Shown here: piece by piece, positions 1 through 6,540 of the stretch
Numbering within the stretch: position 1 is the first letter of the stretch
Layout: the number at the start of each line of letters is the position of its first letter
IMG/VR virus record: IMGVR_UViG_2698536307_000009
Strand: one strand, 5' to 3'
Length of the DNA: 6,540 bases
Source: a virus
Lineage: Duplodnaviria; Heunggongvirae; Uroviricota; Caudoviricetes
Translations under genes and position numbers: made by a program
The notes under the pieces: model-generated
The model's input: only the letters and a program-made list of their open reading frames with translations
What the model was told of the DNA's origin: nothing
The model's database searches: none

Positions 1-1
1 G

Positions 2-23
2 GAAAAAATAGCCTAAATAGGCT
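2..23 (-). terminator. Putative intrinsic terminator downstream of tfa
   Basis: Minus strand reads AGCCT-ATTT-AGGCT (5-bp stem, plus 10-23) followed by ATTTTTT (plus 9-3), about 120 nt after the tfa stop. Confidence 0.4.
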
Positions 24-142
24 GATTCGATGTGTTTGCGGGAAAAAAATCGGCCCAGATCCGAGAAATTTTAATCAGCGAGTCAGCTTGGGAAGAAATG
101 ACCTGCTTATTCGCACCTTCCATAGAATTTATATGTTTTACC

Positions 143-718
143 CTACGGCAGTGCTGGCCATTCAATATCCGGTGCAGTTGATGTATCAACACGGTTCAGC
201 AACACCCGATACTTTTTCCAGGCTTCCAGCAACAAGGTTTCTTCCTCCGTTGCGATCTCCAGATCCACAGCATCCTGAAGCGGCGCTATATGCTCACTGG
301 CTATCTGCATCAGGCTGTTTTTTGTTTCTTCCGCCTCCCGGATCCGGAACAGTTTTTCTGCTTCCGTATCCTTCACCCAGGCTGTGCCGTTCCACTTCTG
401 ATATTCCCCTCCCGGCGATAACCAGGTAACATTTTCCGGTAACGGACCGAGTTCAGAAATAAATAACGCGTCGCCGGAAGCCACGTCATAAACCGTTTTA
501 CCCCGATGATCTTCAACGAGATGCCACGATGCCTCATCACTGTTGAAAACAGCCACGAAGCCTGCCGGAATATCTGGCGGTGCAATATCGGTACTGTTTG
601 CTGGCAGACCTGTATGAGGCGGAATATATGCGTCACCTTCACCAATAAATTCATTAGTTCCGGCCAGCAGATTATAAATTTTTATGGTCCGTGGTTGTTC
701 ACTCATTCTGAATGCCAT
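143..718 (-). CDS. tfaQ: Tail fiber assembly protein (lambda Tfa family), 191 aa
   Basis: 191-aa ORF; translation [35 protein letters not shown]...DIEWPALP matches lambda Tfa and the K-12 TfaQ/TfaR paralogs as I recall them. Start overlaps the upstream stf stop (TAATG). Symbol assigned from Qin-like gene context. Confidence 0.9.
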
Positions 719-1026
719 TACGCAAGCCTCACAATATAGTTAAATGCGATGTTTTTGACGGTGTTTTCCGCGTTACCAGCAGCGTTAACGGTGATGGTAT
801 GTCCATGTGAACCAATCGCAACGGAGTGCGTATGAGCACCAATACCGACAGTATGTGCGTGTGCACCTGCGCTTGCAGCAGTACCCGATACAGAGTGCGT
901 ATGAGCGCCTGCAGAAGAAGTGTTAACACTGTATTTAGAATAATCAGGTGATCCACTTCCCGGAGCACCACTGGAACCACCTGAAACAAATGTCATCGAA
1001 TGGGTATGTGCACCGGCTGTCCCCAT
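718..1026 (-). pseudogene. Side tail fiber (Stf) C-terminal fragment, remnant lacking its N-terminus
   Basis: 102-aa ORF with GAHTHS/HxH repeats typical of the distal receptor-binding tip of lambda Stf-like fibers. Begins at an internal ATG directly at the junction with J-derived DNA; translationally coupled to tfa. Confidence 0.7.
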
Positions 1027-2360
1027 GCATTTACCGCCCGGACTGTCAGCCTGTAATTTCCCAGCGCCAGCTGCGTGAAGCGATATGTGGTTTCCGTCGT
1101 CCGGGCCGTGCTGACCAACCGCTCACTGCCGTCGTCCGCTGCCACGGTCAGGCGAAGCATAAAGCTCACCCCCTTCACCACCTTCGGCGTGTCCCAGCGC
1201 GCCAGCACCTGGTATTCCCCGCTGTCTGCGGTGACTTCTGCGGTCAGGTGCTGAACTGCTGGCGGCGTGACACCATTCACCGTGCCGCTCTGGTCACCGT
1301 CAAAGTGCGCCCCGTTATCCACGATGGCTTCTTTCTCCGGTACATGCTGCACGGCAGTGATGGCATACGTACCGTCATCGTTCTCACGGATACTCACACA
1401 GCGGAACAGGCGCTGACGCAGCGTCGGCAGCTTCAGCCCCCACACGCTGTACTCGGCAACGCCGTCAGGAACCCGGCTCACTTTCACCTTCACGCCGTCG
1501 GTGACGGACTGGACCTCCACGCTCACCGGATTACCCTGCCCGTCAACCAGGCTTATCAGCGTGGTGCCGGAGGATGGCAGCGTGATTTCACGGTCGAGCG
1601 TCAGTGTCCGCGTCTGGCTGTTCACCGCCAGCACGCGCCCGCCGATGCTGATCCCCGCATAGTCATCATCACAGATTTCAATGACATCACCTGGTACATG
1701 GCGAAGCCCTTCGGCACCCACGCTGAAGTCCACGGTCTGCGTTTCCAGCAGTTCCGTTTTAATCAGCCACAGCCCGGCTCGGTGCGCCTGCCCCCGCCTG
1801 GTACAGCCAAAGGCATCCATCTTCGTGACGTTACGACCGTAACGGGCAATGGCCTGCGTGTCCTCCACAAGCTCTGTCGCCGTCTCCCAGCCGTTATCCG
1901 GGTCAATCCAGTTCACCTCAACGGCATTATGGCGGTCCTTCAGGGCGCTGAAGCTGTAGCGGAACGGCGCGCCATCATCCGGCATCACCACATTACTGCG
2001 GTTATAGGTCCACACCTTATCTGATGGTCGGTCCTGCACGAACGTCAGCGTCTGCCCGTTCCATACCGGCATACAGCGCATCGCCGAGCAGAAATCACTG
2101 AGAACATCCCACGCCTTACGCTGTGTGGTCAGCCAGGCATTACAGGTGATGCGCGGCTCCGTGCCGCCAAAACCGTCCGGCACCGACTGGTCGCAACACT
2201 GGCCGATGACATACAGCGCCCATTTATCCACATCTGCCGCACCAAGACGTTTACCCATGCCGTAGCGCGGGTGGCTGGAGATCTGTCTCGCTGGCCTGCC
2301 GCAGTTCTTCAACTTCCCGGCGCAGCTTTTCGTTCTCAATTTCAGCATCCCTTTCGGCAT
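993..2360 (-). pseudogene. Internal fragment of lambda J-like host specificity (tail tip) protein; J homology roughly 1017..2271
   Basis: 455-aa ORF; from YGMGKRLGAADVDKWALYVIGQ to [14 protein letters not shown] it matches the central part of lambda J (about residues 330-770 of 1132 from memory). The first ~28 codons are Nu1 DNA read out of frame; the last 7 codons (PVHIPIR) are stf DNA read out of frame. Confidence 0.85.
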
Positions 2361-2508
2361 ACCATTTTATGACGGCGGCAGAATCATAAAGCACCTCATT
2401 ACCCTTGCCACCGCCTCGCAGAACGGGCATTCCCTGTTCCTGCCAGTTCTGAATGGTACGGATACTCGCACCGAAAATGTCAGCCAGCTGCTTTTTGTTG
2501 ACTTCCAT
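2251..2508 (-). pseudogene. Terminase small subunit Nu1 homolog, N-terminal fragment (85 aa, winged-HTH DNA-binding domain retained)
   Basis: MEVNKKQLADIFGASIRTIQNWQEQGMPVLRGGGKGNEVLYDSAAVIKWYAERDAEIENEKLRREVEELRQASE matches lambda Nu1 residues 1-~77; after DLQP it diverges (PALRHG-stop) where J-derived DNA is fused, near plus 2271/2272. Native start codon and upstream cosB are intact. Confidence 0.85.
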
Positions 2509-2519
2509 TGTTCATTCCA

Positions 2520-2730
2520 CGGACAAAAACAGAGAAAGGAAACGACAAAGGCCAAAAAGCCCGCTTTCAGCACCTGTCGTTTCCTTTCTTTTCAGGGGGT
2601 ATTTTAAATAAAAACATTAAGTTACGACGAAGAAGAACGGAAACACCTTAAACCGGAAAATTTTCATAAATAGCGAAAACCCGCGAGGTCGCCGCCCCGT
2701 AACCTGTCGGATCACCGGAAAGGACCCGTA
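2520..2730. other. Lambda-type cohesive end site: cosB (2520-2685, with Nu1-binding R-like elements), cosN (2686-2697), cosQ side (2698-~2730)
   Basis: Plus 2686-2697 AGGTCGCCGCCC is the reverse complement of the lambda 12-nt cohesive end GGGCGGCGACCT. Flanks match the lambda left end (CGCGGGTTTTCGCTATTTATGAAAATTTTCCGG...) and right end (...CGACAGGTTACG) as recalled. Elements with the GTTTCC core are visible between cosN and the Nu1 start. Confidence 0.85.
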
Positions 2731-2896
2731 AAGTGATAATGATTATCATCTACATATCACAACGTGCGTGGAGGCCATCAAACCACGTCAAATAATCAAT
2801 TATGACGCAGGTATCGTATTAATTGATCTGCATCAACTTAACGTAAAAACAACTTCAGACAATACAAATCAGCGACACTGAATACGGGGCAACCTC

Positions 2897-3130
2897 ATGT
2901 CAACGAAGAACAGAACCCGCAGAACAACAACCCGCAACATCCGCTTTCCTAACCAAATGATTGAACAAATTAACATCGCTCTTGAGCAAAAAGGGTCCGG
3001 GAATTTCTCAGCCTGGGTCATTGAAGCCTGCCGCCGGAGACTGTGCTCAGAAAAAAGAGTTTCTTCTGAAGCAAACAAAGAAAAGAGTGACATTACTGAA
3101 TTGCTCAGAAAACAGGTCAGACCAGATTGA
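2897..3130 (+). CDS. ynfO: Small basic protein YnfO-like (77 aa), predicted ribbon-helix-helix (Arc/MetJ-like) DNA-binding fold
   Basis: ATG-initiated 77-aa ORF in lambda right-end-like DNA. Basic N-terminus (KNRTRRTTTR), then a strand-helix-helix pattern (NIRFP / NQMIEQINIALEQKG / NFSAWVIEACRRRL). Position and size fit K-12 Qin ynfO; the fold is inferred from the pattern only. Confidence 0.65.
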   Translation: MSTKNRTRRTTTRNIRFPNQMIEQINIALEQKGSGNFSAWVIEACRRRLCSEKRVSSEANKEKSDITELLRKQVRPD

Positions 3131-3187
3131 AGCAATTTAGATAATCGTGCAGACTACGCCCCCTCATATCACATGGAAGGTTTATCT

Positions 3188-3598
3188 ATGGATCAGGTAG
3201 TCATTTTTAAACAAATATTTGATAAAGTTCGAAACGATTTAAACTATCAATGGTTTTATTCTGAGCTAAAACGTCACAATGTCTCACATTACATTTACTA
3301 TTTAGCCACAGAGAATGTTCATATTGTATTAAAAAATGATAATACAGTGTTATTAAAGGGCCTAAAAAACATTGTGTCTGTCAAATTTTCAAAGGATAGG
3401 CATCTTATAGAAACGACCTCTAATAAGCTGAAATCCAGAGAGATCACATTTCAGGAATACAGAAGAAACCTTGCTAAAGCAGGAGTTTTTCGGTGGGTTA
3501 CAAATATCCACGAACAAAAAAGATATTACTATACCTTTGATAATTCATTACTATTTACTGAAAGCATCCAGAAAACTACACAGATCTTACCACGCTAA
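3188..3598 (+). CDS. ydfO: YdfO/YbcV family protein (DUF1398), 136 aa
   Basis: [34 protein letters not shown]...QILPR. Start placed at ATG 3188, which has a GGAAGG Shine-Dalgarno 7 nt upstream (3175-3180); the in-frame ATG at 3173 has none. Confidence 0.85.
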
Positions 3599-3606
3599 AC
3601 CATAAC

Positions 3607-3635
3607 GTCCGGCTTCTCTCACTCCTGAGCCGGAC
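3607..3635 (+). terminator. Hairpin 9 nt after the ydfO stop (possible terminator, weak U-tract)
   Basis: Perfect 8-bp inverted repeat GTCCGGCT...AGCCGGAC with a 13-nt loop, followed by TGCATTGGTTTAAT. Confidence 0.3.
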
Positions 3636-3700
3636 TGCATTGGTTTAATAAAAACCATCAACAATTGTGATTTAGATATTCGGAACCATTCAAATATAAC

Positions 3701-3723
3701 AAAACCCCGTAAAAACGAGGTTT
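3701..3723 (-). terminator. Possible bidirectional terminator between convergent ydfO and gnsB
   Basis: Minus strand AAACCUCG-UUUUUA-CGGGGUUU: stem with one G-U wobble, flanked by A and U runs, about 30 nt after the gnsB stop. Confidence 0.25.
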
Positions 3724-3749
3724 ATGGATAAATTTTATTATTGAATACA

Positions 3750-3923
3750 TCAGATTAAATTAATCTTGACATCATAGCTTTCAAGACCCGTCATTTTTTC
3801 CCGTGCGGTAAACTGAATACTGGTAACTTCTTTCCCGGTCTTTTTCTTAAGTTCAATAATTTTTTTTGTTATATATTCAGAAATATCTGCTTCTGCTTTT
3901 GTTTTTAAGTTTTCAATATTCAT
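3750..3923 (-). CDS. gnsB: GnsB (GnsA/GnsB family small protein, 57 aa)
   Basis: Not in the supplied ORF track (below its size cutoff). Minus-strand translation is MNIENLKTKAEADISEYITKKIIELKKKTGKEVTSIQFTAREKMTGLESYDVKINLI. AAGAGGAA Shine-Dalgarno immediately upstream. Family and symbol from recalled GnsA/GnsB sequence and Qin gene order. Confidence 0.8.
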   Translation of the reverse strand: MNIENLKTKAEADISEYITKKIIELKKKTGKEVTSIQFTAREKMTGLESYDVKINLI

Positions 3924-3965
3924 CATTTCCTCTTTTAGTCTGTTATGACTTTCCAGTTACACAGT

Positions 3966-4000
3966 AAGTCGATTATATGGTGCAAACGTGTAAAAGATAA
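3966..4000 (-). promoter_or_regulatory. Candidate sigma70 promoter for gnsB
   Basis: Perfect -10 TATAAT (minus strand, plus 3977-3972) about 50 nt upstream of the gnsB start; the -35 at 17-bp spacing is weak (TTATCT). Confidence 0.3.
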
Positions 4001-4094
4001 GATGAAACATCGCAATAATCAACATACGATAGTCTAAATTTTACACAAACAGACAAAGAGAATTTTCCTGAATTATCAATGCAATAGCATCAAA

Positions 4095-4250
4095 TCAACT
4101 CAAGAGCCTTATTGCTGCTTCCAGAATTTCTTCTGAAGTAACATGTCGATCCGCGGCTACATAAATGACTTTATGATCTCCGGTCAGAGATGGAAACCCT
4201 GCGGCCATTACAGTAAGGTGTGTTTTTTCGCCATTTGGATATTCACGCAT
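4095..4250 (-). CDS. ynfN: YnfN-like small protein (51 aa if started at MREYPNGEK; alternative in-frame ATG at 4325 gives 76 aa)
   Basis: Open frame ending at 4095; the track's start at 4367 is TTG. The ATG at 4250 has GGAG 11 nt upstream and gives the 51-aa length I recall for K-12 YnfN. The minus-strand terminator at 4370-4389 leaves little room for a promoter ahead of the upstream starts. Confidence 0.5.
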   Translation of the reverse strand: MREYPNGEKTHLTVMAAGFPSLTGDHKVIYVAADRHVTSEEILEAAIRLLS

Positions 4251-4369
4251 GATGGTGTTAACTCCAGTCATCGCTGGCACTACCACTGCTGGTTCAGAGT
4301 TAAAAAAAACTATGATTTTTTTCATGATGTTACCGTAGTATGTGAGTATCCATCGAATAGACACCAAGC

Positions 4370-4389
4370 AAAAAAGCTCCCGAAGGAGC
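4370..4389 (-). terminator. Intrinsic terminator between cspI and ynfN
   Basis: Minus strand GCUCC-UUCG-GGAGC (GC-rich 5-bp stem, UUCG tetraloop) followed by UUUUUU; plus 4376-4389 stem-loop with the A-run at 4370-4375. Confidence 0.6.
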
Positions 4390-4596
4390 CTTCATTTTCA
4401 CTTTTTTAAATCCAACGACAGACGGCTGGCATTTAAGTATTGTGAAATATTATCAAATGTAATCATCATTGATTTACAAAAGATACATTTTGCCCCGAAA
4501 GGATTCATGTCAGAAACATCAAAAGATGATGTTCTATACTGGGAACCATGACAACACGGGCATCTAAAGTGAATATGGTTTGTAATATTGTCTACC

Positions 4597-4809
4597 TCAA
4601 AGCGCCACTACATGAACAGCGGCAGGACCTTTAGGTCCGTTCTCAATACCAAATTCAACTTCCTGATTCTCAGTTAATGTTTTGAAATCGTTGCTCTGAA
4701 TTGCTGAGAAATGGACAAACACATCTTTGCTGCCATCTTTCGGCGTGATGAAACCAAAACCTTTTTCAGGGTTAAACCATTTCACTAAACCAGTCATTTT
4801 GTTAGACAT
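4597..4809 (-). CDS. cspI: Cold shock protein, CspA family (70 aa), CspI-like
   Basis: [70 protein letters not shown] carries the RNP1 (KGFGFI) and RNP2 (VFVHF) motifs. Shine-Dalgarno AAAGGTAATAATT-ATG resembles cspA. Neighbours fit K-12 Qin cspI. Confidence 0.93.
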
Positions 4810-4989
4810 AATTATTACCTTTTGAAGAAATTAGCCCTTGGGCAGAATGGTCCGAAAAAAAATATCAGAGAGAAAAACCAACAAGGAAATCTCAAGAGGT
4901 ACAAATAATAAAATTATAACAATGACTGCTTCAGATAAATTTGTAACAAACCAGAACACCATTAACGCATGATTAACCACCCATAGCAA
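4810..4989 (-). promoter_or_regulatory. cspI promoter and long 5' leader with cold-box-like element
   Basis: Minus strand: -35 TTGCTA (plus 4989-4984), 17-bp spacer, -10 GTTAAT (plus 4966-4961), resembling cspA TTGCAT/CTTAAT. Predicted leader about 145 nt; GGTTTGTTACAAAT near its 5' end resembles the cspA cold box. Confidence 0.45.
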
Positions 4990-5171
4990 GGATTACTTTT
5001 GTAAAGAAAAACACAGCAATGAAAGAATGGCTTTATTTATTAATAAAACGTGTCATTCTGATTAAGACCTTTTATCTTACCCTTAAGATTTCAGGAATTT
5101 TGGCTCATGGAAGAGTCCTTTTTATTTAAATTTTACATTCCGCGATGTAAATGTTCCGATTTAATATTACC

Positions 5172-6195
<1,024 letters not shown>

Positions 6196-6199
<4 letters not shown>

Positions 6200-6425
6200 A
6201 GATATTTATGATGAGGACGCTCGTGCTTATTGGCAGGATTTTCAATCTTAAAGGAGTACTGATGCTGCAGATAAGACTCAACTTTTTCTGACAATTTTTC
6301 TGCTACTTCCAGGAAGACTTGCCGGACGCTCCTTCTGGCTGCTGCCTCATAAAACTCCAGCGCAGCTCCTTCAACACGGTCCATGGCGACATCCAGGTCA
6401 AAAATTTCACCGTCAAAGCGTTCTT
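6196..6425 (-). CDS. ydfR: YdfR-like protein, 5'-truncated by IS1 insertion (likely pseudogene); first ATG at 6384 gives 62 aa
   Basis: Frame is open from the stop at 6196 to the IS1 boundary at 6425/6426 with no start codon except the internal ATG at 6384, which lacks a Shine-Dalgarno. Position between the endolysin and where the holin would lie fits ydfR. Stop overlaps the rrrQ start (ATGA). Confidence 0.5.
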
Positions 6426-6540
6426 GGTAATGACTCCAACTTATTGATAGTGTTTTATGTTCAGATAATGCCCGATGACTTTGTCATGCAGCTCCACCGA
6501 TTTTGAGAACGACAGCGACTTCCGTCCCAGCCGTGCCAGG
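6426..6540 (-). mobile_element. IS1 insertion sequence, terminal 115 bp including the right inverted repeat; element continues beyond the window
   Basis: Plus 6426-6455 GGTAATGACTCCAACTTATTGATAGTGTTT is the IS1 right-end inverted repeat; the following sequence matches the IS1 3' region in reverse complement as recalled. Confidence 0.9.
6441..6540 (-). CDS. insB: IS1 transposase InsB (InsAB') C-terminal end, partial at window edge
   Basis: Minus-strand translation ends ...[19 protein letters not shown]-stop, with the stop codon at plus 6441-6443. Confidence 0.8.

Follow-up and report, generated by a model that had tools for sequence, protein, structure and literature searches.

An IS1 end interrupts ydfR in the lysis operon of a Qin-type cryptic prophage of Escherichia coli

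Insertion sequence IS1 is classically strongly polar in operons, and polar IS1 insertions are classically known in the gal and lac operons. The IS-free state of the gene studied here is represented by the Qin prophage of E. coli K-12 MG1655, in which ydfR (WP_000189916.1; UniProt P76160) comprises 312 nt encoding 103 aa, lies 4 bp downstream of the holin gene (essD in RefSeq) and overlaps with its stop codon the start of rrrQ. YdfR is a protein of unknown function; an interaction of residues within 1-72 with the N-terminal, catalytic half of RNase E, and possibly binding of RNA, has been reported for it, and the ydfR operon is reported to be essentially silent under standard conditions (PMC13232886).

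Here we analysed a stretch of 6,540 nt (the window) of the IMG/VR virus record IMGVR_UViG_2698536307_000009, a piece of Qin prophage bounded by IS elements. Positions 122-6425 match the IS-free Qin-type locus of CP144926.1 (L012) without a difference, the one mismatch reported lying within a 3-base BLAST extension past the ydfR-IS1 junction, and positions 2599-6425 are 99.9% identical to Qin of MG1655 (L002). The gene order is that of K-12 Qin, ydfR-rrrQ-rzpQ-cspI-ynfN-gnsB-ydfO, with the same neighbours, and the 230 nt of ydfR shared with K-12 are 100% identical; nt 1-82 of the gene are absent from the window and would be separated from the rest by IS1. The features of the interrupted region are as follows.

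Positions 6426-6540, minus strand: IS1 right end, the first 115 bp inward from the right inverted repeat (IRR); 115/115 identity, the window ending at 6540.
Positions 6441-6539, minus strand: 3' end of insB, the last 32 codons and the TAA stop (6443-6441), from translation.
Positions 6426-6448, no strand assigned: IS1 terminal inverted repeat (IRR) of 23 bp, GGTAATGACTCCAACTTATTGAT, read directly.
Positions 6417-6425, no strand assigned: right-hand copy of the putative 9-bp target-site duplication, ydfR nt 83-91, AGCGTTCTT on the plus strand and AAGAACGCT in the ydfR sense; position from the K-12 alignment, 9-bp length deduced from the peptide look-up.
Positions 6196-6425, minus strand: ydfR remnant, nt 83-312 of 312, from the last two bases of codon 28 to codon 103 and the stop; 100% identity to MG1655 ydfR (L002 3597-3826).
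Positions 6196-6384, minus strand: residual 62-aa ORF from Met42; ORF listing and Pfam PF07041.
Positions 5666-6199, minus strand: rrrQ endolysin gene, intact; ORF listing, Pfam PF00959, identical to K-12 rrrQ over this stretch.
Positions 5172-5669, minus strand: rzpQ (DUF2514, Rz-type spanin gene) with embedded rzoQ, intact; Pfam PF10721 at 133.8 bits, K-12 rzpQ at the matching position.

The preliminary description of this DNA had set the start of the IS1 right inverted repeat at 6426, and the alignments bear this out. All 115 bases of 6426-6540 are identical to annotated IS1 copies of E. coli chromosomes (loci L001, L011 and L016; E ~5e-56), carried in the annotation as "IS1-like element IS1A family transposase", and at 100% identity to annotated IS1 the objection that this stretch is not IS1 falls away. 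The IRR at 6426-6448 agrees in every base with the corresponding end of the IS1 annotated in E. coli IAL7255 (NZ_CM130730.1, L001), where the right-end sequence extends as a full IS1 (3001-3768), and GGTAATGACTCCAACTTATTGAT also matches the IS1 IRR of the literature. Moreover, the insB stop at window position 6441 corresponds to the last position (3016) of the transposase coding sequence annotated for the IS1 of IAL7255. Only the last 32 codons of insB, identical to copies annotated as "IS1A family transposase, programmed frameshift", lie in the window, with insA and the frameshift site beyond its end; insA-insB' of this copy would be on the minus strand, in the same direction as ydfR, rrrQ and rzpQ. 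An InsB-YdfR fusion protein was considered and ruled out: insB ends at its own TAA inside the IRR, and its frame differs from that of the ydfR remnant.

The comparison with the IS-free Qin locus of MG1655, which had been suggested at the outset, places window 6196-6425 on ydfR nt 83-312, and homology breaks at 6425|6426. The junction lies exactly there, after the first base of ydfR codon 28 (...CAAAGCGTTCTT|GGTAATGACTCC), and past 6425 the K-12 sequence reads ...tgtcctgtaagg... where the window reads IS1. Homology to the IS-free locus thus ends at exactly the terminal base of the IS1 inverted repeat, with the IS-free sequence of K-12 ydfR extending another 82 nt 5' of the junction. The IS1 end sits inside codon 28, and only the 3' 230 nt of ydfR are kept in the window, which holds neither the natural start of the gene nor its ribosome-binding site nor codons 1-27. 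Both outer coordinates of the region are correct, 6196 belonging to the ydfR stop codon and 6540 being the window end.

A ydfR-like frame that runs into IS1 with no start of its own had been noticed before, and so it was found: the frame is open across the junction as far as a TAG inside IS1 (6486-6484), and its sole in-frame start is the ATG at 6384, the internal Met42. The IS1 insertion explains the missing proper start. The residual 62-aa ORF from this ATG, which is devoid of YdfR residues 1-41, matches Pfam PF07041 (DUF1327) with 96.3 bits (E 1.3e-27, cut-off 25); K-12 YdfR covers positions 1-93 of the 93-position profile, whereas the residual ORF covers only 42-93. Upstream of ATG 6384 the sequence is GACCTGGATGTCGCC, with no obvious Shine-Dalgarno sequence. 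The same 62-aa product has been called on 67 contigs with various ydfR lesions, as several independent lesions leave the same ORF; a 1-bp deletion and a 14-bp deletion, for instance, leave it identical. The 62-aa "gene" at 6196-6384 is a gene remnant and no functional DUF1327 member, which fits annotation as a pseudogene.

It is extremely improbable that there was no real insertion, whether through an assembly artefact or through a ydfR that is naturally short and starts at ATG 6384. The window resembles a short-read contig with repeats at both ends, such ends can be chimeric, and many records carry the 62-aa ORF as an annotated gene. However, the break falls exactly on the terminal base of IS1, and the same ydfR-IS1 junction recurs in the separately assembled contig IMGVR_UViG_2693429601_000010 (6,513 bp; L021), which is 100% identical to window positions 3-6515, has both its ends inside IS elements and stops 90 bp into IS1. 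That the junction turns up again in a second contig, trimmed differently at its ends, speaks against a chimeric assembly, as does the presence of the reciprocal junction product in several assemblies, described below. Furthermore, a full DUF1327 needs residues 1-41, and the IS-free allele encodes 103 aa in K-12 and in at least eight near-identical loci, so that the proposal of a natural start at 6384 fails.

With IS5 at one end and IS1 at the other, the window behaves as a short-read contig flanked by repeats, and the far end of IS1 is therefore out of reach from it. Positions 1-121 are a terminal end of IS5 that reads ...CTTATTCGCACCTTCC as far as base 121; at 99.2% identity it matches the IS5 copies that adjoin 326-aa DDE transposase genes in loci L012 and L014. 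IS-free Qin homology begins at 122, 21 bp past the tfa stop, and the pin invertase gene, which comes next in other strains, is absent from the window. The 4 bp adjoining IS5 (CTAT in the tfa sense) are no textbook IS5 target. A 36-aa ORF at 13-123 (minus strand) lies almost wholly inside the IS5 end, with its ATG straddling the IS5 boundary, and is present on 425 public contigs as "ABC transporter", which looks like a propagated annotation error.

In the interior of the window, the terminase small subunit (nohA, Phage_Nu1) survives as an N-terminal fragment of 85 aa (2251-2508, minus strand), which leads straight into a fragment of 421-455 aa from the C-terminal part of a lambda J-type tail-tip protein (993-2360, minus strand). 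It follows that the entire block of head and tail genes was lost in one large deletion. Qin prophages with this deletion are widespread: their 85-aa product is present in 2,226 blocks of the collection. Look-up of the 85-aa fragment gave many genomes, all with intact ydfR, and the only match of the 455-aa J-fragment ORF was a 1.4-kb metagenome contig. ORFs spanning the IS5 or IS1 junctions were either absent from the protein collection or not lineage-specific.

The fate of the ydfR 5' end was approached through its predicted products. Simple insertions leave target duplications and adjacent deletions leave none (PMC11708052). For a simple insertion, ydfR nt 1-(82+L), with L the length of the duplication, should be followed by the IS1 end GGTGATG..., and the peptides predicted in this way were looked up by exact sequence among ~15 billion proteins, the prediction having been made before the look-up. 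The peptide for L = 9, MTQDYELVVKGVRNFENKVTVTVALQDKERW, which ends in ...DKERW followed by a stop, was found exactly (P0002; CTU70331.1, CTW58579.1, CTZ24152.1 and CTZ56539.1, "Qin prophage protein [Escherichia coli]"), while five other junction peptides (L = 7, 8, 10, 11 bp) were absent from the same collection. P0002 occurs on six contigs, the longest of 6,487 bp, unlike the 14-bp-deletion allele ending in ...DKERF (no IS), which occurs on contigs of up to 4.77 Mb. Its confinement to short contigs fits a contig breaking at a repeat; a 30-aa contig-edge partial ending in ...DKER, on contigs of at most 6,341 bp, likewise fits a repeat that starts right after ydfR nt 91.

In addition, the 62-aa 3' ORF is recorded under CTU69724.1, in the same accession series as CTU70331.1. 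In another strain of the same table, ORFs two locus tags apart have accessions ~250 apart, and with this spacing CTU69724.1 and CTU70331.1 are compatible with one genome; the shared series is only suggestive of P0002 and the window coming from the same genome. The peptide ending in ...DKERW could also come from an IS-free gene that has lost 5 bp (TTGAC, nt 92-96), and it would arise from an IS1 end in either orientation.

Taken with the junction itself, the peptide evidence points, indirectly but specifically, to a simple IS1 transposition that duplicated 9 bp (AAGAACGCT) and kept the holin gene and late region on the far side of the element, a reading to which we assign a probability of roughly 75-80%. 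In a defective lambdoid prophage of the Qin type in E. coli, an IS1 copy would have transposed into ydfR, where the InsAB' transposase would have made a staggered cut whose repair duplicated 9 bp of the target (ydfR nt 83-91). The predicted left side reads ...GACAAAGAACGCT (ydfR to nt 91; also ...ACAAAGAACGCT) and then the IS1 left end GGTGATGCTGCCAACTTACTGAT (GGTGATGCTGCCAACTT...); after ...AAGAACGCT, a simple insertion predicts GGTGATGCTGCC... Beyond the 768-bp element there would still be ydfR nt 1-91, the holin gene essD/essQ and the late region. Of the two fates proposed earlier for the ydfR 5' end, displacement or deletion, displacement by this element is most likely the one that occurred, given that the N-terminal fragment predicted from a 9-bp duplication exists in public E. 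coli assemblies, and deletion was not upheld.

It is unlikely that the IS1 insertion went together with, or was followed by, an adjacent deletion through which the ydfR 5' end and possibly the holin gene and late promoter region were lost and the far IS1 end came to adjoin some sequence further upstream, with no target duplication. Only 115 bp of IS1 are visible before the window ends, the other contig end is IS5 (window 1-121), so that the prophage is being reshaped by IS elements, and adjacent deletions promoted by such elements, which leave no duplication, are common (PMC11708052). The left junction predicted for a simple insertion, searched as DNA, had no match in IMG/VR or in the JGI metagenomes. 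These empty DNA searches are uninformative, however, in that the right junction, which is certain, is likewise absent from the species-representative genomes and the JGI metagenomes and was found once in IMG/VR, in IMGVR_UViG_2693429601_000010. Moreover, the exact peptide of an intact 5' fragment plus 9 bp plus IS1 end exists on short repeat-bounded contigs, the tested alternatives being absent, and the same accession series holds the 62-aa 3' ORF. The suspicion that an adjacent deletion had removed the holin or late promoter region is thus opposed by the presence of the 9-bp peptide in the databases, although the window itself ends inside IS1.

Of the 5,426 complete E. coli genomes screened with a 211-base query (window 6330-6540), 5,212 match its IS1 or ydfR piece, at a total of at least ~76,000 places; among the matches listed, the median genome has about 10 such places, most of them IS1 copies. 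Such a number of copies is ample substrate for recombination, and the visible IS1 end might be part of a composite IS1-flanked transposon or of an IS1 that later recombined with another copy by inversion or translocation. This is also allowed by the 115 bp of IS1 in view and by the peptide evidence, which places an IS1-type end by nt 91, either IS1 end giving ...W*; an IS1-IS1 recombination (inversion) after the insertion would leave both junctions intact. We nevertheless regard a composite or rearranged element as quite unlikely: it has no positive evidence, single-copy insertions are usual (as the IS1 in rzpQ of IAL7255, with its 8-bp duplication), and the flanks are collinear with IS-free Qin loci up to the junction.

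Among the matches listed, the right junction was not found in the 5,426 complete RefSeq E. coli genomes, in which a full-length junction match would outrank IS1-only pieces. The full-coverage matches were all made of two or three pieces, to IS1 copies elsewhere, namely in rzpQ, in rrrQ and upstream of essD or ynfU. The contigs found through the 62-aa ORF all had ydfR damaged in other ways, by deletions of 1 bp or 14 bp or by an IS3-family insertion. This insertion site appears to be lineage-specific; its absence from the 5,426 complete genomes, among the matches listed, suggests that it marks a particular E. coli lineage and could serve as a typing marker.

Downstream of the insertion the lysis operon continues with rrrQ and ends with rzpQ. 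The rrrQ ATG (6199-6197) overlaps the ydfR TGA stop (6198-6196) as ATGA on direct reading, the rrrQ stop and rzpQ start overlap as GTGA (5666-5669), and rrrQ has no obvious ribosome-binding site of its own. These four-base overlaps suggest translational coupling along the lysis operon, and rrrQ is probably coupled translationally to ydfR within the same operon. By deduction, full-length YdfR cannot be made from the interrupted gene, and the leftover 62-aa ORF would be devoid both of the N-terminal region reported to bind RNase E and of a ribosome-binding site. Transcription from the late promoter would be likely to terminate inside IS1, and rrrQ would also lose the coupling given by its overlap with ydfR. 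Through IS1 polarity and lost coupling together, the endolysin (rrrQ) and spanin (rzpQ/rzoQ) genes are probably silenced, with polarity probably cutting rrrQ and rzpQ/rzoQ off from late-promoter expression. Neither promoter-like nor terminator-like sites, including hybrid ones at the junction, were found in 5600-6540.

In comparison with other Qin prophages, the nearest parallel with IS1 itself is E. coli IAL7255 (NZ_CM130730.1, L001 3001-3768), in which an IS1 with the identical 115-bp end lies in rzpQ and is flanked by a clean 8-bp direct duplication, GAAATTTC; the gene struck is rzpQ with 8 bp duplicated there, and ydfR with a deduced 9 bp here. In strain cS76a (NZ_CM176584.1, L011), an IS1 with the same 115-bp end lies upstream of essD and an IS3 interrupts rrrQ. 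The ydfR gene itself is interrupted by IS629/IS1203-type elements (IS3 family) in F8704-2 (CP050998.1, L005 8565-10189) at nt 83-85, in 2014C-4423 (NZ_CP027454.1, L022 521-2145) at nt 69-71 and in NCTC9038 (NZ_LR134082.1, L023 537-2160) at nt 50-53, all three in one and the same orientation and, like the IS1 of the window, in the 5' third of the gene. These elements differ from IS1 in being ~1.3 kb long, in a 3-bp duplication (4 bp possible in NCTC9038) and in other chemistry, and they are independent events in other lineages. The retained 3' part of ydfR in F8704-2 begins at nt 83 as in the window and leaves the same 62-aa residual ORF, which may be a coincidence or could hint at a regional hot spot. 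Another three copies of the IS3 family are found close to the holin gene, a few hundred bp further upstream.

Smaller ydfR lesions are a 1-bp deletion in codon 12 and a 14-bp deletion of nt 92-105 (loci L003/L006/L007/L008 and L004/L009, respectively). The 14-bp deletion lies between TTTGAC repeats and directly adjoins the 9-bp IS1 target; as a candidate excision scar of IS1 this allele was set aside, slippage between the repeats fitting better. That the 5' third of ydfR (~nt 50-105) is a mutational hot spot or a target of selection is an unlikely proposition. The lesions in this stretch, independent and in different E. coli lineages, are IS1 at nt 83-91, the IS629/IS1203-type insertions at nt 83-85, 69-71 and 50-53 and the 14-bp deletion at nt 92-105, collected with look-ups that were biased toward ydfR lesions upstream of Met42, and a truncated database protein, taken by itself, would imply a further junction near nt 79. 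If the hot spot were true, local DNA structure might attract two unrelated transposases, or selection might silence the RNase E-binding YdfR or the residual lysis cassette of a domesticated prophage.

The event described here is of an ordinary, already known kind with known elements, in which IS1 makes a pseudogene of a small gene in a cryptic prophage. IS elements have repeatedly struck the Qin lysis cassette, and ydfR especially, across strains, which fits ongoing decay or domestication, and the IS1 of the window adds a further step to the decay of a prophage that was defective already. As in the IS1 mutations of gal and lac, the element lies in an early gene of an operon whose distal genes are expected to be off through termination within the element; the operon of the window differs from these in being the late lysis operon of a largely silent cryptic prophage, in which polarity is predicted from the position of IS1.
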